Shown here: positions 1 to 7,750 of the stretch, piece after piece
How positions within the stretch are numbered: the first letter of the stretch is position 1
How the letters are laid out: each line of letters starts with the position of its first letter
NCBI GenBank assembly: GCA_018970765.1
Contig: JAGWVT010000006.1
Location: forward strand, 1,933 to 65,932
Reading direction: 5' to 3'
Length of the DNA stretch: 64,000 nucleotides
From: Actinomycetales bacterium
GTDB lineage: Bacteria > Actinomycetota > Actinomycetes > S36-B12
Position numbers and translations under genes: made by a program
The notes under the pieces: model-generated
Told to the model about the DNA's origin: nothing
Database searches by the model: none
What the model saw: the letters and a program-made list of their open reading frames with translations, nothing else

Positions 1-84
1 ACTCAACAGGTCATCGAAGGACCAGTGGAGGTAGTAGGCCAGGAATCCGATCTCCTCCCAGAGGCGATCGGCCCCGACCGTCAC
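1..84 (-). CDS. small ORF translationally coupled to the chaperone-like gene; its 3' part lies beyond the left edge, so the CIS operon continues
   Basis: GTG at 84-82 overlaps the TGA at 83-81 of the upstream gene (GTGA). The frame stays open to position 1 and reads VTVGADRLWEEIGFLAYYLHWSFDDLLS. It is missing from the ORF track only because the window cuts it. No family name asserted. Confidence 0.35.
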   Translation of the reverse strand, partial: MTVGADRLWEEIGFLAYYLHWSFDDLLS

Positions 85-476
85 AATTCCCCCGGGGCAC
101 CACCTGCCACGTCGACCGTGAAGTCGCTATTACAGGAGGGACAGGTCACCTCGACCAGCGTGTGTCCTTCGGTGTTGATTCGTCGGTATAGGTCCTGTAG
201 GAAAGCCAGGTCGGTCGCCCACAGCCCACCGATGACTTGATCGTCGATGACAGGCAGGGATCCGAGCCTTGTGACGACCCGCGCCAAGAGCACGAGCGAC
301 AGGAATGCCTCATTTTGACGGACCTTCGGGTCCAGCAGCGGCATGAGTTCGTCACGGGCGGTTGCCAACCGCATCGTGCCCTCACGGTGCACGGTACCGC
401 TCTGATCGACATAGCCACGCGGCAGGACAAAATCAAATGATGTCTGAAGGAACTCCTCAGCTGCGGCGGCGGACAC
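81..476 (-). CDS. tail-assembly-chaperone-like protein of the CIS/phage-tail-like operon
   Basis: 131 aa with a GTG start 4 nt after the tube stop. It sits directly after sheath and tube. The segment GTMRLATARDELMPLL resembles P2 gpE-type chaperones, and the C-terminus carries a single CPSC knuckle. Assignment by eye and gene position only. Confidence 0.5.
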   Translation of the reverse strand: MSAAAAEEFLQTSFDFVLPRGYVDQSGTVHREGTMRLATARDELMPLLDPKVRQNEAFLSLVLLARVVTRLGSLPVIDDQVIGGLWATDLAFLQDLYRRINTEGHTLVEVTCPSCNSDFTVDVAGGAPGEL

Positions 477-480
477 GGGT

Positions 481-924
481 TTAGCTCGGCGTCATATCAG
501 TGAAGGTCATGGTGATGACCATGTTGATTGCCGTCGGCTCACCCGCCTTCACGTCTCCATAACTGACGTTCGTCACCATGATGTTGGTGAAAGTCATGGT
601 AAGCACGGTTGTTCCCGTGGTGTCCTTGTAGACCAGGGTGCCGGTCTTGCGAGCCCCTTTGAAATCACCATTGATGCCTTGCAGGAGCCATTGCGAAACG
701 TTCTTGTCGCCAGTATTCAAGACTGTCAACGTTAAGGTCCCGCTCTGCGTTGGCCCGAGCATCTGCTGCAGCACGTAGGTGCCGTCTGGTGTCATGGAAC
801 GTGTCTCGATTGTCGAGGTGCCTTTCGTAATGTTGTTCACCTCAACGACGTTCGGGATCACCTGACCGTCTATCGAGAACTCAAATGAATACGCGGTAAG
901 CGCATCACCACCGGTGAGAGACAT
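481..924 (-). CDS. contractile tail tube protein (T4 gp19-like phage tail protein family)
   Basis: ATG at 924 is preceded by AGGAG with a 9-nt spacer (the ORF-track start at 930 is a GTG too close to the SD). 147 aa, beta-rich, MSLTGGDALTAYSFEFSIDGQVIPNVVEVNNI..., 27 nt downstream of the sheath gene. Confidence 0.85.
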   Translation of the reverse strand: MSLTGGDALTAYSFEFSIDGQVIPNVVEVNNITKGTSTIETRSMTPDGTYVLQQMLGPTQSGTLTLTVLNTGDKNVSQWLLQGINGDFKGARKTGTLVYKDTTGTTVLTMTFTNIMVTNVSYGDVKAGEPTAINMVITMTFTDMTPS

Positions 925-951
925 TCCCACTTACTCCTATCGATAGATGGA

Positions 952-2505
952 CTAGTCGCTGATCGATGCTCCGCCAGAGAACTGGGCGAGTCGGAAGATG
1001 ACGAACTCGGCGGGCTTGACTGGCGCAACACCGATCTCCACGATCACCATGCCGGCATCGATGCTTTCCGCCGTGTTGTTCTCTCCGTCGCACTTCACAA
1101 AAAAGGCTTGCTCCGGCTTGCTACCGAACAGAGCTCCGCTGCGCCATTCGTTGACCAAGAAGGCCGTGATGGTACGACGGATGCGACCCCACAGGCGTTC
1201 GTCGTTCGGTTCAAATACGCACCACTGGGTGCCTTGGAGGATCGACTCCTCGAGGTAGTTGAAGTACCGGCGAACGTTGACGTAGCGCCACTCGGCGTCC
1301 GATGACAAGGTTCGGGCGCCCCATACTCGAATGCCGCGGCCAGGGAAAGCCTTGATGGAATTCACACCCTCTGGGTTCAGCAGGTCCATCTCGCCGCGGG
1401 TGACCGCCGACTCAAGGCCCACCGCTCCCTGGATGACCTCATTGGCAGGTGCCTTGAACACGCCTCGGGTGTCATCGGATCGACTCCAGAGCCCGGCAAT
1501 GTGCCCGCTCGGCGGGAAATCGATGTTGTGACCTACCGACGCGTCAAAGACGGTCAGCCAGGGCCAGTACAGCACTGCGAATTTCGAGTCGTACCCGGCG
1601 CCCGTCATACGCCAGTCGGATACCTCTTGTGCGTTGAGGCCAGCCGGCGGATCGATGATGGCCATTCGATTACCCATCAATTCACAGTGCCCGATGAGTG
1701 CGGTCTGCACTGCTTTCACACCGTCGAGATCAATGAGTCCCTGTCGATGGGCCATGACGAGGTCCGGAGCCAGCACCATGGTGATCTCCTCCAGCGTCTC
1801 AAACGCGGAGAACCCGGTGCGTTGGGCGGAGTCACCGACAAGCGCGGCGGCGTCCACCGTGGGAACGGGGAGATTGTCCGCTGGCGCCACAACTGCGAGG
1901 GGGTAGGAATTTGCGGCCAGCCCAGCGGTAAGGGCATCAGCGGGCGCATCGAGCGTTTCAATGCGCACCAAGCGAGAACGTGAATTGACCTGAGTTGCCA
2001 CGTTGGTCCGACCCGGGCCGGCAGTCAGACCGTGGTAGGTCTCCGCAACGTCGTCACCCTTCTTCACCGTGAGGTCGAACGTGCCCGCCGGGGGACTGTC
2101 GCCTTCGGGAGCAGTGATGACCACGGAAAGGTCCGCGACGTTGGCATCAAGGGCACGCACCTCGAACGCCGCCACAGCCTTGTCACCGCCGGTGTTGAGC
2201 TGCGCGACCGGAAGAGTTGGAGGTGGCGTTGAGCCGTCTCCCGTGAAGGGAATGCGCACGATGTATGCGCGACCGCCGCCGTTATTGAAGAAGCCATAGA
2301 CGGCCTTACCCAAGGCAAAGTCTTCGACCGGTTCACCAAACGTCGAGACGTACTGCCCCCAGTTCGTAACCAGGATGGGCGAATTGATCGGACCGATGGG
2401 TGCAAAGCCAACGAATCCAGCAATGGCCGTACCAACCCCAGCGATAGGCCGTGTCGCAGCCGGGACTTCCTCGACGTAGACACCGGGGGAGAGATAGGTG
2501 GGCAT
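952..2505 (-). CDS. contractile tail sheath protein
   Basis: Internal ATG at 2505 (Met33 of ORF 952..2601) is preceded by GGAAGGA. The N-terminus MPTYLSPGVYVEEVPAATRPIAGVGT and the C-terminal GIRVWGARTLS...WRYVNVRRYFNYLEESI are hallmark sheath (gp18/Afp2-like) signatures. 517 aa. Confidence 0.9.
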   Translation of the reverse strand: MPTYLSPGVYVEEVPAATRPIAGVGTAIAGFVGFAPIGPINSPILVTNWGQYVSTFGEPVEDFALGKAVYGFFNNGGGRAYIVRIPFTGDGSTPPPTLPVAQLNTGGDKAVAAFEVRALDANVADLSVVITAPEGDSPPAGTFDLTVKKGDDVAETYHGLTAGPGRTNVATQVNSRSRLVRIETLDAPADALTAGLAANSYPLAVVAPADNLPVPTVDAAALVGDSAQRTGFSAFETLEEITMVLAPDLVMAHRQGLIDLDGVKAVQTALIGHCELMGNRMAIIDPPAGLNAQEVSDWRMTGAGYDSKFAVLYWPWLTVFDASVGHNIDFPPSGHIAGLWSRSDDTRGVFKAPANEVIQGAVGLESAVTRGEMDLLNPEGVNSIKAFPGRGIRVWGARTLSSDAEWRYVNVRRYFNYLEESILQGTQWCVFEPNDERLWGRIRRTITAFLVNEWRSGALFGSKPEQAFFVKCDGENNTAESIDAGMVIVEIGVAPVKPAEFVIFRLAQFSGGASISD

Positions 2506-2563
2506 GTGGTTCCTTCCCGTCAGGACGCTCTTTGCATCCAAGCATCGGACCGCGCGAAAGTGC

Positions 2564-2625
2564 TGTTGTGACCCCGTGAGTTCCAGCGTGTCGCGGCGCA
2601 AAATGGGCGTGTTGTGATACCCGTG
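2564..2625. promoter_or_regulatory. pair of 15/16-nt direct repeats in the sheath / DUF4280 divergent control region
   Basis: TGTTGTGACCCCGTG (2564-2578) and TGTTGTGATACCCGTG (2610-2625), with starts 46 bp apart, lie inside the 228-bp non-coding gap. Confidence 0.4.
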
Positions 2626-2733
2626 TTATTGACGCGATGAAAGCCCACTTGTGGTGATTACGGGACCAAAGTGATTTGACTCCAACCTGCGCCGCGAACG
2701 ACCGACCGCTGACATGCGACTTAGACTCGTAAA

Positions 2734-3123
2734 GTGCCAGGGCCCGTTGCGGTACTCGGAACCCCAATGCTCTGCGACATGGGTTTTGCGCCCTCAGCGC
2801 TCATCGTTGAACCCATGGGCGTGTTTGCCAATGACCTTCCGGTCGGGACCATTTTCGACATCATCCCGCTGGTCAACATTCCACCGTTCGTCCTGTGCCG
2901 TTCTTTCCTCAACCCCGAGGTGATTGCGTTAACCGCTGCGGCGCTAGGAGTCCCAACACCGGCCCCGTGCATCCCCATCGTCGTCGACCCGTGGCTGCCG
3001 CCAGGGAATGTGCTCGTGGACGGCATGCCCGTGCTGACGGAAGGTTCCGTGTGCCAGTGCCTCTGGGGCGGCACGATTGAACTGATCGGTCCATCTCCAG
3101 CCGAGAACGTCGAGGCGATCTAG
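2734..3123 (+). CDS. DUF4280 (PAAR-like) domain protein
   Basis: GTG start at 2734, 129 aa. It is a small Gly/Pro/Cys-rich beta protein (VLGTPMLCDMGFAPSAL ... GSVCQCLWGGTIEL), typical of DUF4280. It is divergent from the sheath gene, and its stop shares the palindrome CTAG (3120-3123) with the convergent gene. Confidence 0.7.
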   Translation: MPGPVAVLGTPMLCDMGFAPSALIVEPMGVFANDLPVGTIFDIIPLVNIPPFVLCRSFLNPEVIALTAAALGVPTPAPCIPIVVDPWLPPGNVLVDGMPVLTEGSVCQCLWGGTIELIGPSPAENVEAI

Positions 3124-3845
3124 CCGGTTAAGAGGTGAGCGAGCGGGTCTGGCTGGATAGGCAGGGGACCTTGAATGGGATTGCTGAGAATCCAGACGGT
3201 GTGAAGGGCAATGACGATGAGCGCGGCCATGCTGATCAGCGTGATGAGGCGCAAGGTGCGCGACCCGAACTGCAGCAATGTGCCCAGGCTAAGCACAATT
3301 GCAGCACCCATGATGAGCATGATCCAGATGAACGGTGGAGCTTCCCGCGTCACCACCTCGCGTTCAATGCGCGCCCGCTCAAGATCGGATAAGGCGTCGA
3401 GGAGGGCAGCTTTGGCATTCAGGAATGCCCCGCCATCCTCCGACTGAAGATCCATCACTTGCTGATAGACCAGATTTAAGTGTCGAGTGCCCTCGGCGGT
3501 CGCCGCTGGACTGCCGAGGTCGTTCCATGATCCGACGTCTGCTTTTAGGTAAGACTCCAGACTCGCGATGACTCCTGCGCCCGATTCGTTCGGCAGAGCT
3601 GCCGAGATCCGTGCAATGGTCGTTGCAGCTGCTGCCTCGCTGCGGAGCGCATCCACAGAATCGTCATACGACTGTTGGGCAAAGAGAATCGCGAAGCCCA
3701 GCAGCACCGCGTACGTGGTGAAAGCCGCCGTGATTTTGATGCCGAGGCGTTCGTCATCGTCGTGCGGACTGCGTGACTGCCAGCGCTCCATCAGAAGTGC
3801 GACCACAACCACCAGACCAATGACGACGACCAGAGTTAGGCCCAT
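3120..3845 (-). CDS. DUF4239 (bestrophin-like) membrane protein
   Basis: ATG at 3845 gives MGLTLVVVIGLVVVVALL (TM1); an alternative TTG at 3902 overlaps the upstream stop. A soluble helical middle part is followed by two C-terminal TMs ending ...LSNPIQGPLPIQPDP, the usual DUF4239 layout. Confidence 0.6.
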   Translation of the reverse strand: MGLTLVVVIGLVVVVALLMERWQSRSPHDDDERLGIKITAAFTTYAVLLGFAILFAQQSYDDSVDALRSEAAAATTIARISAALPNESGAGVIASLESYLKADVGSWNDLGSPAATAEGTRHLNLVYQQVMDLQSEDGGAFLNAKAALLDALSDLERARIEREVVTREAPPFIWIMLIMGAAIVLSLGTLLQFGSRTLRLITLISMAALIVIALHTVWILSNPIQGPLPIQPDPLAHLLTG

Positions 3846-3898
3846 TCGCAGCCATACTGTCGCGTTCAAGGGGCCTCCACTGTTAAGGCTGCTAGCGG

Positions 3899-5212
3899 TC
3901 AACTCCGGGTAGCAGGCTGAAGGATCTCACGGTAGGCGTCCGAGAGCGGTTGGACGGTATCCAGGATTGGGCCCTGCCAGCGCAACCGCAGCTGATCCTG
4001 GCAGGCAGTCGTGCTCTCGCCGGCACAGGACCGCAGATCTTCGACGTAGCCCACCCGTGCTGCAACAAAGGCATCGAAAGCTTGCTGGAAGCGACCATAG
4101 GACTGCTGCTCCGCGGGGGATGCATTGGCCAGTGCCGCGTCGAGTGTCCTTTTGGCGGCGACCAGGCTCAACAGCGCCGCCTCGGCGGCGGGTGAGTCCG
4201 CCAGCGGATCGGATCCGGTGGCGTTGCCGTAGTCCAGGAGTGCGCGTTCCACCTGCGGAAGGGCAGCCCCTAAATTCGCATACCCCGTTGGTGTTGCACT
4301 CGACATCGGTGCCGGAGTGACAGTGGTCTCTAGGGTCGTGGTTCTCAACAGCCCAAGAGAGCCTTCCCAGGCCAGTAAGACACCTGCGAATGCGAGCAGG
4401 ACAACTGGAGCCAGACGACTCCAACCTCTGCGCGGTCGCGGTTGTAAGGCGCCTGTCCAACTCAAGCCGTTCCACCAACGCTGCTGAGATTGGGCAAGTG
4501 GGTCGGGGCGCCAGCCTGGTAAGTGATCACTGGGTGGCACGCTCAGCAGGTCTCGATCCTTCGCTCGCCTCCACGATTGTCGAATCAGGGCGATCGGCAG
4601 AACGATTACGACCCAGATAAGCGCGCTGACCAAAGTAGTGATGAGCGCTGCCAGACCCCAGTCGGGCAGATCAAGTCTTGCTACGAACGGCTCGACTATC
4701 CATGAACGGCCCAAGACGCGGATGAGCAATATTGGGGCACCCGCACTCACCAGAGCGCTGAGTATCAGGCCGGTCCACACCAGGCCGTCTCGATGAAGTG
4801 GCCGTTCGAACAGGAGGCGCTGGGGCTGGCCGGTGACCGTTGGTGGCAGAAGGACCATGTCGCGGGCGATGGCCAGCGGTGTCGTCAACGCGGCGGAGGG
4901 GGCTGGCACACCTCCCTGTTGGCCGATTCCTTGGAGACAGACATTGTGAAGGAGACGTTGCGCCTGGCGAACACTCACGACCGCAGGTAGTTGGAGAGTC
5001 GTCTCAGAGGAGCGTCCGTCGGATGAGTCCGGACCCGCGACTACCGTCAGTTTCGCGTACTCACTATTGCCCGCCACGGTGACCCGCAGTCCACGATCCT
5101 TGCCAAGTCGCGTGAGGCTCGTTCGCAAGGCTGATTCCAGCGCGGGATCAATCGCAACAACATCTCCGGTATGCAGTGCCGTGTCGTTGCAATACGGGCA
5201 TGTCGTGCCCAT
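3899..5212 (-). CDS. uncharacterised multi-domain membrane protein (CPYC knuckle, 3 TM, DUF2510-like motif)
   Basis: ATG at 5212, 437 aa. The N-terminal MGTTCPYCND is followed by about 150 soluble residues. TMs: LVWTGLILSALVSAGAPILLI and WGLAALITTLVSALIWVVIVLPIALI. Then the motif GWRPDPLAQSQQRWWNGLSWTG (DUF2510-like), a third TM and an Ala-rich C-terminal domain of about 135 aa. Confidence 0.6.
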   Translation of the reverse strand: MGTTCPYCNDTALHTGDVVAIDPALESALRTSLTRLGKDRGLRVTVAGNSEYAKLTVVAGPDSSDGRSSETTLQLPAVVSVRQAQRLLHNVCLQGIGQQGGVPAPSAALTTPLAIARDMVLLPPTVTGQPQRLLFERPLHRDGLVWTGLILSALVSAGAPILLIRVLGRSWIVEPFVARLDLPDWGLAALITTLVSALIWVVIVLPIALIRQSWRRAKDRDLLSVPPSDHLPGWRPDPLAQSQQRWWNGLSWTGALQPRPRRGWSRLAPVVLLAFAGVLLAWEGSLGLLRTTTLETTVTPAPMSSATPTGYANLGAALPQVERALLDYGNATGSDPLADSPAAEAALLSLVAAKRTLDAALANASPAEQQSYGRFQQAFDAFVAARVGYVEDLRSCAGESTTACQDQLRLRWQGPILDTVQPLSDAYREILQPATRS

Positions 5213-5220
5213 GAGAACCC

Positions 5221-5511
5221 TTACGCGACCAGGTAGAACACTCCGGCCACGATGAGACAGAGCAAGGCGAGCCAGAGCATGAGTAGGCCGATGGCCATAA
5301 TCCTTAAGGGGGCGCGCACATCGCTATCTGCATACCGCCAGGTGTGCTTAGCGACCACGCGCAGTGGTGTTGCCTCACTTGCCGCATTTCCGGCAGGGTC
5401 CCGCTGGCTCCAGTACCCGCGTTCACCGCGTTGCCCAACCTTGGCGAACAGGCCGCCGAATATGGCAAGGACGATCCCAAAGGTCAAGAACACGAGCGAA
5501 GTGACCGGCAC
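5221..5511 (-). CDS. small two-TM membrane protein (start uncertain)
   Basis: Only the C-terminal 96 codons of ORF 5221..5715 look protein-like (VPVTSLVFLTFGIVLAIFGGLF ... IMAIGLLMLWLALLCLIVAGVFYLVA). A GTG lies at 5511 but there is no clear SD. The upstream part overlaps the reductase gene and is Arg/Pro/Ser noise. The ORF ends 8 nt before the 437-aa gene. Confidence 0.35.
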   Translation of the reverse strand: MPVTSLVFLTFGIVLAIFGGLFAKVGQRGERGYWSQRDPAGNAASEATPLRVVAKHTWRYADSDVRAPLRIMAIGLLMLWLALLCLIVAGVFYLVA

Positions 5512-5567
5512 GAAGCAGCAGACTAGTACGTGCAGACTTAGGCGGTGCGCTCCCGGGGAGGTTTTGC

Positions 5568-6254
5568 ATGACGGGCTTGACCGTCGATGACGTACAGGCA
5601 CTGCTAGGGAGTTACCGCTGGCCGCAGGTCGTGCCTGACCGCGGCTGGCTCCGGGCAAACATGGTGATGTCCCTGGACGGTGTGGTGGTAGACGCAAACG
5701 GTCGATCTGGCTCACTTTCCACCGAACCGGATCGACTGCTCTTCAACGGCCTGCGCCGTGACTGCGACGTGGTCTTAGTGGGAGCCGGCACTGTGCGAGC
5801 CGAGCGCTACCAGCCCGCCCGTTGGCCTGTTGCGCTCGTTACCAATGCTGGCAACCTGCCCGAGGACCTACCTTTGCTGGATCCGGCAGGTGGCCCCGTG
5901 ATGGTCTTCACGAGTCAACGTGGCGCGCAAGCTATTGAACCGTCTGTTCAAAAGCGGTGTGAAGTCATTGCATGCGGAGTTGATCAGGTCGACCTAGCAA
6001 CGTGCCTGCAGTGGCTCACAGGGGCGGGGTTCCACAGAATCCATTGCGAGGGTGGCACACGACTTTTGTCTGGCTTGATCGCTGACGACCTAGTGGATGA
6101 ACTACTGGTCACCGTGTCACCCCAATTGCTCGGTGGCCCGTCAGACGTGCACCTAGTGGACGTTCCCGCAGTGCTCAACCCAGTGCGAGTAGGACGCTTC
6201 GAGCAGGTGATCACCGTGGACGAAACCGTGTTCTTGCGCGCCATGCTCCACTAG
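5568..6254 (+). CDS. RibD C-terminal domain reductase (dihydrofolate-reductase-like pyrimidine reductase family)
   Basis: ATG at 5568 is preceded by GGGGAGG. The segment ANMVMSLDGVVVDANGRSGSLSTEPDRLLFNGLRRDCDVVLVGAGTVRAERY matches the RibD_C pattern. Confidence 0.75.
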   Translation: MTGLTVDDVQALLGSYRWPQVVPDRGWLRANMVMSLDGVVVDANGRSGSLSTEPDRLLFNGLRRDCDVVLVGAGTVRAERYQPARWPVALVTNAGNLPEDLPLLDPAGGPVMVFTSQRGAQAIEPSVQKRCEVIACGVDQVDLATCLQWLTGAGFHRIHCEGGTRLLSGLIADDLVDELLVTVSPQLLGGPSDVHLVDVPAVLNPVRVGRFEQVITVDETVFLRAMLH

Positions 6255-6271
6255 GGCGATGCCCCTAGGAA

Positions 6272-7675
6272 GTGCAGAAGTCTCGAGACATCCAATAGCT
6301 ATGTCTCGAGACTTCACAAACGTGGGCGATACAGTGCCTTGTTCGAGGACATATTTATCGGGTGTCTCGGGACATGCTTATCGCCTGAGTGGGTGGGTCG
6401 GCCAGCGTTCGGGCCATGTCGAAGCAGCGGGTCATCGTCGAAGCGGTCCTGTCAGGGAAGTCCCAGCGTGAGGTCGCCAGGCTCTACGGGGTGTCCCAGC
6501 CCCGGGTGAGCCAGCTCGTGGCCGCCTGGCGGGCCGGTGGCTGGCACGCGCTGGAACCGAAATCCACCCGACCCCACACCAGCCCCACGTCGATCTCCCC
6601 GCAGATGGTCGCGGCGATCTGCGACCTGCGCCGACGACTCACCGCCGACGGCCTGGACGCCGGCCCGAACACCATCGCCGCCCTGCTCACCGCACAGGGC
6701 CTGACCCCGCCGGCCGCGTCGACGATCTGGAAGACCCTCACCACTGCCGGCCTGATCACACCCCAGCCCCGCAAGCGACCCAAATCCGCATCCATCCGAT
6801 TCCAGGCCGACCTGCCCAACGAATGCTGGCAGTCCGACTTCACCCACTGGCCCCTCGCCGACGGCACCGACACCGAGATCCTCATCTGGCTCGACGACCA
6901 CGCCCGCTACCTGCTGTCCATGACCACCCACACACCCGTCACCGGCCGCGTCGTGGTGAACACCTTCCGTGCCGCATGCGCCCTCCACGGCACCCCCCAA
7001 TCCACGTTGACCGACAACGGATTCGTGTTCACCACCCGGCACCGCGGCGGCGTCAACGCCTTCGAAGTCGAACTGCTGAACCTCGGCATCACCCAGAAGA
7101 ACGGCAGCCCCAACCACCCCCAGACACAAGGAAAAGTCGAACGCCTGAACCAGACCCTGAAGAAATGGCTGCGCGCCCGACCCCACGCCACCACCCTGAC
7201 CGAACTACAAGCCCAACTCGACGAATTCACCGACCACTACAACAACGCACGCCCCCACCAATCACTCAACGACCGCACACCCGCCGCTGTCTATGCCGCA
7301 CGAGCCAAAGCCACCCCAGAACACAACCGAAACGGCCACTTCCGCATCCGCGACGACACCGTCTACGCCAACGGACAAGTCACCTTGCGTCGATCAGGCC
7401 GCATGCACCACATCGGACTCGGCGCCGAACACGCCGGCACCAAAGTCCGCATGCTCATCCACAACCTGCACGTCATCATCATCGACCGCGAAACCGGCGA
7501 GATCCTCCGCGAACTGCACATCGACCCCGACAAAGACAGCCAACCCCGCGGCCTCAAACCCGGACCCAAGAAAGGAACACCCCGCAAAGGCGGCATGGCC
7601 AAGGGCTACCGCTACACACCCCAGAAATAAGGAAGTCTCGAGACATCCGATAAGGATGTCTCGAGACTTCACAAA
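6272..7675 (+). mobile_element. IS481-family insertion sequence (boundaries approximate)
   Basis: A single DDE transposase gene is flanked by the same 39-bp hairpin module: GAAGTCTCGAGACAT, a 9-nt loop, ATGTCTCGAGACTTC. The copies lie at 6277-6315 and 7632-7670, each followed by ACAAA. The outermost arms form an inverted pair. Confidence 0.75.
6416..7630 (+). CDS. IS481-family transposase (HTH plus rve/DDE integrase core)
   Basis: ATG at 6416. N-terminal HTH: MSKQRVIVEAVLSGKSQREVARLYGVSQPRVSQLV. DDE region: WQSDFTHW, WLDDHARYLL, NHPQTQGKVERLNQTLK. Confidence 0.9.
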   Translation: MSKQRVIVEAVLSGKSQREVARLYGVSQPRVSQLVAAWRAGGWHALEPKSTRPHTSPTSISPQMVAAICDLRRRLTADGLDAGPNTIAALLTAQGLTPPAASTIWKTLTTAGLITPQPRKRPKSASIRFQADLPNECWQSDFTHWPLADGTDTEILIWLDDHARYLLSMTTHTPVTGRVVVNTFRAACALHGTPQSTLTDNGFVFTTRHRGGVNAFEVELLNLGITQKNGSPNHPQTQGKVERLNQTLKKWLRARPHATTLTELQAQLDEFTDHYNNARPHQSLNDRTPAAVYAARAKATPEHNRNGHFRIRDDTVYANGQVTLRRSGRMHHIGLGAEHAGTKVRMLIHNLHVIIIDRETGEILRELHIDPDKDSQPRGLKPGPKKGTPRKGGMAKGYRYTPQK

Positions 7676-7676
7676 G

Positions 7677-7750
7677 TAGCGGGGGCAGGATTTGAACCTG
7701 CGACCTCTGGGTTATGAGCCCAGCGAGCTACCGAGCTGCTCCACCCCGCG
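7677..7750 (-). tRNA. initiator tRNA-Met (anticodon CAT)
   Basis: The reverse complement reads CGCGGGGTGGAGCAGCTCGGTAGCTCGCTGGGCTCATAACCCAGAGGTCGCAGGTTCAAATCCTGCCCCCGCTA. It folds as a cloverleaf with three G:C pairs closing the anticodon stem and a C1:U72 mismatch, both initiator marks. CCA is not encoded. Confidence 0.9.

Follow-up and report, generated by a model that had tools for sequence, protein, structure and literature searches.

Do membrane-protein genes that stand beside a contractile injection system (CIS) take part in its work, or do they merely share its place on the chromosome? This question is raised by three uncharacterized genes, referred to here as g1, g2 and g3, that are encoded next to the spike-tip and sheath genes of a CIS in a 64,000-nucleotide stretch (hereafter, the window) of an Actinomycetales bacterium (GenBank assembly GCA_018970765.1, contig JAGWVT010000006.1, positions 1,933 to 65,932). 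A preliminary description of the window treated the three genes as one module that may act as the membrane-side partner of the CIS. We favor, with moderate confidence, a different explanation, namely that g1–g3 are a lineage-specific envelope-sensing and ion-homeostasis set of an uncultured Actinomycetales clade and that their adjacency to the CIS is inherited gene order. A partnership with the CIS is less likely than such an ordinary set, and the present data cannot decide between the two. The three membrane-protein genes are as follows (aa, amino acids; TM, transmembrane segments):

5221..5511, minus strand: g1, with a GTG start, 96 aa, a two-TM membrane hairpin
3899..5212, minus strand: g2, 437 aa, three TM, of an unnamed family
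3120..3869, minus strand: g3, bestrophin-like (PF14023/DUF4239), a putative ion channel of 249 aa with four TM

Conservation and linkage of the genes

The open reading frames (ORFs) confirm the coordinates and strand that had been assigned to the three genes. These are genuine genes under purifying selection, beyond chance ORFs, because orthologs are found in at least nine other contigs with low ratios of nonsynonymous to synonymous substitution rates (dN/dS about 0.1 for g1, about 0.2 for g2 and 0.06–0.13 for g3).

In all eight contigs that show both genes (the window, L001, L002, L003, L005, L086, L087 and L090), g2 adjoins the gene for DUF4280, the PAAR-like spike tip of the CIS, and every contig reaching past DUF4280 next shows the sheath gene. 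All of these contigs belong to one clade. The adjacency is kept down to 31% g2 identity and spans lineages with identities of 31–36% for g2 and 48–52% for RibD_C, the reductase-family protein encoded on the other side of g1. In the two deepest branches, L090 and L086, identity to the window is 31% for g2, 44–53% for g1, 48% for RibD_C and 91–93% for DUF4280, while the L090 sheath is 89% identical. Such persistence across divergent lineages speaks for a possible, albeit unlikely, reading in which g1–g2 form a clade-specific membrane adaptor or trigger of the cytoplasmic CIS, analogous but not homologous to the Streptomyces protein CisA, with g3 being optional. The N-terminal domain of g2 and/or its DUF2510 loop would then dock onto the baseplate or the DUF4280 tip, and the outer helical bundle would sense stress and license firing.

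Co-occurrence of the module with sheath genes across actinobacterial genomes, by which the preliminary description proposed to judge such a role, is confined to this one clade. A sheath scan of a genome collection gave 80 CIS loci with 53–72% sheath identity (Streptomyces, Cellulomonas, Acidimicrobiia, Chloroflexota and others), and a DUF4280 scan of metagenomes added a sister clade (L093, L094 and L096; sheath about 72% and DUF4280 76–83% identical). Searches by tblastn and profile hidden Markov models (HMMs) found g1, g2 or g3 in none of these 83 other CIS loci, the sister clade included, which argues against the adaptor reading.

The wider g2 family argues in the same direction. A word-indexed search of 5.8 billion proteins returned only seven relatives of g2, at 44–94% identity, and an HMM scan of 1.84 billion representatives returned about 25 further clusters (defined at 50% identity; E 3e-53 to 3e-7). 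All of these clusters have TM1–TM2, the DUF2510 loop, TM3 and a two-cysteine four-helix domain as their common core, and in many members the N-terminus is a zinc ribbon of the classical CxxC...CxxC form. On these alignments, g2 is a member of an unnamed but real family, in which DUF2510 is always placed in the predicted TM2–TM3 loop. Four distant family proteins, on five contigs of 2.6–11.7 kb (L088/L089, L091, L100 and L101), stand in unrelated contexts: P0035 has DEAD helicases, RNase T and a trypsin-like protease as neighbors, P0027 adjoins methylmalonyl-CoA mutase, and P0028 and P0029 adjoin unknown genes. No CIS gene, g1 or g3 was found nearby on these five contigs. Orthologs occurring mostly apart from CIS genes had been named in advance as evidence against a CIS partnership; this does not hold for the strict orthologs, which are CIS-adjacent, and does hold for the distant g2-family proteins examined. 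Indeed, g1 was detected only beside g2 of the CIS-adjacent subfamily, a restriction that favors the adaptor reading, and the window-type N-terminal domain of g2 is confined to that subfamily and P0027 (the relatives sharing it are P0025, P0026 and P0027). When referring to family size, it should be noted that in L001 (9419–10846) and L087 (9203–10501), both JGI contigs, the g2 ortholog was called truncated (328 and 169 aa, respectively) despite a full-length frame, so that database counts underestimate the g2 family.

The CIS is not the only constant neighbor. RibD_C adjoins g1 in all loci that extend that far (L001–L004, L087 and L090) and is thus as syntenic with g1–g2 as the CIS is. In L090 (1876–4727), the genes for a TetR regulator, RibD_C, g1 and g2 all point the same way, and RibD_C–g1–g2, spaced by 9 nt, look co-transcribed. 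The RibD_C gene has the opposite orientation in the clade of the window yet still stands beside g1, showing that the RibD_C–g1 linkage survives inversion. In L001 and L087, pabB/pabC and ThrRS next to RibD_C amount to a housekeeping setting, a point in favor of inherited gene order. These arrangements, together with the presence of pabB/pabC beside RibD_C in L001 and L087, would suit a reading in which g1–g2 belong with RibD_C (and with TetR in L090) and would transport or sense a metabolite of the pterin, flavin or pyrimidine type, unrelated to the CIS. We regard this as improbable, since RibD_C is missing beside the other g2-family members examined, g2 lacks a transporter-like fold and has fewer TM segments (three) than a typical permease, and no riboswitch or other RNA element was found.

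Nor do the three genes behave as a single unit, as had been supposed. While g1 and g2 form a coupled pair, g3 is not present in the two deepest loci, L090 and L086, where g1, g2 and DUF4280 are found (in L090 also the sheath gene). Either g3 was added later or it was lost in the L090 and L086 branches.

Rates of evolution further separate the genes from the CIS. Identity to the window is 89–98% for CIS proteins, 48–78% for RibD_C, 53–81% for g1, 65–81% for g3 and 31–60% for g2. Substitution rates were taken from the pair L003–L087, which is unsaturated:

RibD_C: dS 0.54, dN 0.045
g1: dS 0.56, dN 0.039
g2: dS 0.63, dN 0.131
g3: dS 1.31 (anomalously high), dN 0.053
DUF4280: dS 0.55, dN 0.007
sheath: dS 0.61, dN 0.012

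The dS of the flank (0.54–0.63) equals that of the CIS (0.55–0.61), from which it follows that the whole region was vertically co-inherited. Recent horizontal transfer as the source of the 89–98% CIS identity was ruled out by the same equality. The CIS genes, with a dN/dS of 0.01–0.03, are under purifying selection that is unusually strong for a CIS. The fastest gene of the locus is g2, with a dN/dS of about 0.2 and, at equal dS, 10–18 times the protein change of the CIS proteins that would be its partners, which is another point against an adaptor. Within g2, the DUF2510 loop is held tightest (dN/dS 0.05–0.13) and the linkers are loosest (0.3–0.46). For the predicted outside domain of g2, diversifying selection was considered and rejected, as the dN/dS of this domain is 0.14–0.19; no g2 domain approaches neutrality or positive selection (0.05–0.46).

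These rates also bear on the idea that the genes are cargo of the DUF4280 spike, with g3 or g2 as a membrane-active effector and g1 as its immunity protein, an arrangement known from the neighborhood of PAAR and VgrG genes in type VI systems. The direct neighborhood of a PAAR-like gene, the variation of the DUF4280 flank between clades, the presence or absence of g3 between sub-lineages and the plausibility of a pore former as a toxin are all in keeping with it. Cargo genes would, however, be expected to look different: the genes are convergent, rather than co-directional, with DUF4280, all three proteins have N-terminal or internal TM segments typical of resident membrane proteins, the scans gave no toxin, MIX/FIX-type marker or CIS-effector domain, and purifying selection, vertical inheritance and a dS equal to that of the flanks leave no sign of cassette exchange. 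We thus consider cargo the least probable of the explanations discussed here.

Partnership with the CIS is thus doubted because RibD_C is equally syntenic, the module is convergent with DUF4280 and absent from the other CIS lineages sampled, its family is not linked to CIS genes and it evolves faster. Nonetheless, several points weigh against inherited gene order as the whole explanation and need to be considered. The RibD_C–g1–g2–DUF4280–CIS block has stayed intact while the DNA beyond RibD_C was rearranged in three ways (TetR/aminotransferase in L090, pabB–pabC–ThrRS in L001 and L087, and IS481/tRNA in the window), and this intact g2–CIS junction favors an adaptor. Strict g1 orthologs and g2 orthologs bearing the N-terminal domain are always found beside the CIS, the exception being P0027 on its 2.6-kb contig. 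The module fills the slot beside DUF4280 that cis16 and cis15 take in other loci, and the sister clade has another polytopic membrane protein next to DUF4280, so that a membrane partner beside the spike-tip gene may be a recurring theme. In addition, the AlphaFold2 (AF2) models are modest overall (mean predicted local distance difference test score, pLDDT, of 62), and the sensing or signaling role of g2 is so far hypothetical. The case for a CIS role is adjacency within one clade; this gene order is old and was kept while the far side of RibD_C was rearranged, and so is not worthless. Of the membrane-partner proposal, the adjacency in eight of eight contigs of the clade stands and no observation refutes it outright, whereas the absence of the module from the other CIS loci sampled and the equal synteny of RibD_C do not support it.

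According to the explanation that we favor, an ordinary envelope-sensing and ion-homeostasis set, g2 would act as a transmembrane sensor or scaffold and g1 would probably be its partner subunit. The helical domain of g2 outside the membrane would sense an envelope or solute signal, and the DUF2510 loop and the zinc domain would relay this signal or recruit a cytoplasmic partner. The putative g3 channel would be an addition specific to the sub-lineage of the window, placed between the CIS and g2. If this explanation is true, then CIS adjacency within one clade is no evidence of function.

Architecture of the three proteins

From N- to C-terminus, g2 comprises a putative zinc knuckle or ribbon, two TM segments, the DUF2510 loop, a third TM segment and a four-helix domain, which agrees with the layout proposed beforehand (a CPYC knuckle, two TM, a DUF2510-like motif, a third TM and a C-terminal domain). 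Its parts are:

4913..5212, minus strand: N-terminal domain, predicted cytoplasmic, residues 1–100, with C5xxC8, H14 and C92, conserved in the subfamily (from alignments)
4598..4768, minus strand: TM1, a short outside loop and TM2, residues 149–167 and 187–205 (Kyte–Doolittle hydropathy and charge counts)
4433..4519, minus strand: DUF2510 motif LPGWRPDP...RWWNGLSWTG, residues 232–260 (Pfam PF10708)
4370..4426, minus strand: TM3, residues 263–281
3902..4282, minus strand: C-terminal four-helix bundle, residues 311–437, predicted extracytoplasmic

The topology was assigned by the positive-inside rule and should be read as a prediction. The DUF2510 loop is predicted to be cytoplasmic because it is flanked by K/R-rich stretches (+5 and +4). 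It belongs to PF10708 (E 3.8e-8, 33.4 bits against a cut-off of 24, profile positions 1–30 of 35), and this Pfam match lies in the TM2–TM3 loop, as the reported placement of a DUF2510-like motif between TM segments had implied. The motif is the best-conserved part of g2, with 73–81% identity in the clade and 50–56% to the deepest relatives. In the N-terminal domain, the knuckle is C5-P-Y-C8, and C5, C8, H14 and C92, arranged around an alpha/beta insert, may form a putative CCHC zinc site. The domain is folded in the AF2 model (pLDDT 60–78), and a Foldseek search against the Protein Data Bank (PDB) gave weak BRCT-like matches with E > 0.2.

The C-terminal domain, previously put at about 135 aa, is present and spans about 127 aa. 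It is modeled as a confident four-helix bundle (AF2 pLDDT 84–93; helices 314–332, 341–363, 366–395 and 403–436), for which Foldseek against the PDB returned only generic four-helix bundles, for instance (the N-terminal domain of LytS, the PcaY ligand-binding domain and b562; E > 0.1). In a 26-sequence alignment, C396 and C404 are nearly invariant throughout the family; they probably form a disulfide, and the domain is predicted to lie outside the membrane.

No whole-protein family was found for g2 in Pfam, NCBIfam, PADLOC, PHROGs or PDB sequences, in agreement with the earlier remark that none was recognized for this 437-aa protein, and relaxed Pfam scans of its separate domains gave sub-threshold noise alone. 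Apart from the Pfam domains, g1, g2 and g3 match no defense, phage, plasmid or toxin family, and sequence comparison gave no relative of known structure for any of them.

The 96-residue g1, correctly taken for a two-TM protein according to its ORF and hydrophobic segments (residues 5–23 and 71–89), has between these segments an Arg-rich and strongly conserved loop of about 45 aa (GQRGERGYWSQRDP...TWRYA...VRAPLRIMA). This basic loop is expected to lie in the cytoplasm. Pfam, NCBIfam, PADLOC and PHROGs gave no family match for g1, and a relaxed Pfam scan yielded sub-threshold noise.

For g3, the assignment to the bestrophin-like DUF4239 proteins holds: PF14023 is matched in full length (E 1.8e-24, 87 bits against a cut-off of 32, profile positions 3–232 of 232). 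Its four hydrophobic segments (9–27, 46–64, 181–199 and 209–227) are arranged around a helical cytoplasmic insert. The orthologs of g3 fall into 16 clusters at 64–100% identity, the next relative being at 30%. With a mean pLDDT of 62 for the AF2 model, the top 50 Foldseek matches are nearly all KpBest or VCCN1, aligned over the full length with a probability of 1.0 and TM-scores of 0.55–0.61, with E only 0.03–0.2. The protein is a putative, probably pentameric, ion channel. One unrelated DUF4239 gene was seen about 8 kb from the sheath gene in a Streptomyces rimosus locus.

Comparison with CisA and other known proteins

CisA (SCO4242) is a membrane protein needed for firing of the cytoplasmic CIS of Streptomyces coelicolor (PMC12237407). 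[quoted passage not shown] Its gene lies inside the cluster, after those for the baseplate. The protein, which is no structural component of the particle, is predicted to contact Cis11, and of 120 type IId genomes 75 were found to encode a homolog (PMC12237407). Like CisA, g2 is a membrane protein encoded beside an actinobacterial CIS, with its N-terminal part predicted to be in the cytoplasm and a folded domain on the other side of the membrane, and this CisA-like logic of cytoplasmic part, TM and outside domain (PMC12237407) is one of the points in favor of an adaptor. In every architectural feature compared, however, g2 differs. It has three hydrophobic segments and a folded N-terminal domain, rather than one TM segment with a disordered N-terminus, its C-terminal domain is modeled as a four-helix bundle and gave no SBP-like match, and its gene is placed outside the cluster, beyond DUF4280 on the upstream side of the sheath gene, in a convergent unit. 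Measured against the published description of CisA, g2 thus lacks three architectural features and is set apart from it.

It is nonetheless worth considering that g1–g2 might be a membrane receptor of the cytoplasmic CIS that is not CisA, with firing gated by envelope stress and g3 recruited later. We hold this more specific proposal to be rather doubtful, somewhat more so than an adaptor role in general. If true, it would give DUF2510 its first function and would mean that CIS–membrane coupling arose more than once in Actinobacteria. As the way in which a CIS of Gram-positive bacteria finds the membrane and decides to fire is understood for one protein only, CisA (PMC12237407), a second, unrelated adaptor would be useful; the locus is a weak candidate for it.

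Whatever the relation to the CIS, the g2 family fixes DUF2510 in a loop predicted to be cytoplasmic and so offers a handle on this motif. The pattern GW(R/Y)PDP...RWW(N/D)G..WT is shared by g2 and the DUF2510 (PF10708) proteins of Actinobacteria. In g2 and its family, unlike in other DUF2510 proteins, the motif is not N-terminal but lies in the TM2–TM3 loop, behind a putative zinc knuckle or ribbon, and this architecture is undescribed. The literature searched contains no mention of DUF2510, no published function for it and no link between bestrophin-like proteins and a CIS.

The likeness of g3 to bestrophins (KpBest, 4WD7; VCCN1, 7EK1) consists of four segments, a helical insert and a full-length alignment of the model. 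This should be weighed against an identity of 12–17% to the solved bestrophins, the modest model and Foldseek E values that are not significant alone. The ion selectivity of g3 cannot be deduced from this likeness. Among bestrophins, KpBest is a cation channel and those of animals are anion channels.

As in the N-terminal domain of LytS (5XSJ) and the ligand-binding domain of PcaY (6S38), the C-terminal domain of g2 would be a four-helix bundle outside the membrane that follows a TM segment. Only the generic fold is shared with these sensors; g2 has no kinase, methyl-accepting chemotaxis protein or other known output domain, and its two conserved cysteines, with the disulfide that they may form, are untypical of LytS- and PcaY-type sensors.

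Gene boundaries, injection-system genes and flanks

The g1–g3 set forms a transcription unit of its own, which runs toward DUF4280 in convergent orientation. The 8-nt gap reported between the g1 stop and the g2 ATG was recovered, and the g1–g2 spacing is 8–9 nt in six loci, with a 1-nt overlap in L004. The reported 4-nt overlap of g2 and g3, in contrast, arises solely when the longest ORF (TTG at 3902) is taken for g3. In a DNA alignment of six orthologous loci, the g3 start is a conserved TTG or GTG at 3869. A conserved GGAGG precedes it, and conservation is lost farther upstream. Given this start, g3 extends over 3120–3869 and encodes 249 aa, as called in the orthologs, beginning 29 nt after g2. 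At the other end, the stop codons of g3 and DUF4280 overlap in a palindromic CTAG (3120–3123), leaving no intergenic space or terminator between the two genes, and the tight junction recurs in L002, L003 and L005.

About 8 nt before the GTG of g1, a TAGTNT box stands within a conserved ACTAGT (5512–5530) in the window, L002, L003 and L087. This box resembles the actinobacterial −10 consensus, TANNNT, and suggests a leaderless g1–g2 transcript. In region 2400–6400, promoter and terminator matches are at chance level and no Rfam family was found, the sole Rfam match being a tRNA elsewhere in the window. No motif common to the upstream regions of g1 and the sheath operon was seen in a comparison made by eye only. 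Both the separate unit and this missing shared motif count against an adaptor.

The CIS genes and the genes on the other side of g1 are as follows:

2734..3123, plus strand: DUF4280, PAAR-like spike tip (Pfam E 4.6e-19), convergent with g3
952..2505, minus strand: CIS sheath (Pfam Phage_sheath_1 and Phage_sheath_1C), start taken at MPTYLSPGVYVEE
481..930, minus strand: CIS inner tube (Pfam Phage_T4_gp19; weak NCBIfam CIS1_fam match)
81..476, minus strand: 131-aa CIS gene, tail-assembly-chaperone-like (phrog_508, E 5.6e-7)
5568..6254, plus strand: RibD_C pyrimidine-reductase-family gene (Pfam E 3.4e-27; NCBIfam PRK14059), divergent from g1 and 56 nt apart from it
about 6277–7670: IS481-family element (IS, insertion sequence), with the transposase at 6389–7630
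7677–7750: tRNA gene

Across the clade, DUF4280 is 91–98% and the sheath 89–97% identical. The 131-aa chaperone-like gene was found in 77 of 85 CIS loci, and the CIS extends past the left end of the window. In the closest outgroups (regions compared: L006, 6557–9807; L011, 3513–4574; L096, 3857–9058), DUF4280 is the first gene of an operon that also contains cis16 (for the Pvc16_N cap) and cis15 (for an AAA ATPase), and these two genes are found within 10 kb of the sheath gene in 59–65 CIS loci. In the clade of the window, DUF4280 stands alone, and the module sits where cis16 and cis15 normally follow it. Neither gene was found in the window or in the examined parts of L001 and L087, and tblastn on the window and L001 gave no match. 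The sister clade (L093, 10443–11354; L096, 4455–5327) encodes a conserved protein of 290–303 aa with 5–6 TM segments directly downstream of DUF4280 and co-directional with it; the protein has a weak DsbB-like match (E 0.001) and is not homologous to g1–g3.

The IS481 element lies between RibD_C and the tRNA gene and has perfect 17-nt terminal inverted repeats (6277–6293 and 7654–7670). The window thus carries IS481 and the tRNA gene where L001 and L087 have pabB–pabC–ThrRS beyond RibD_C, and this replaced flank suggests an IS-associated rearrangement.

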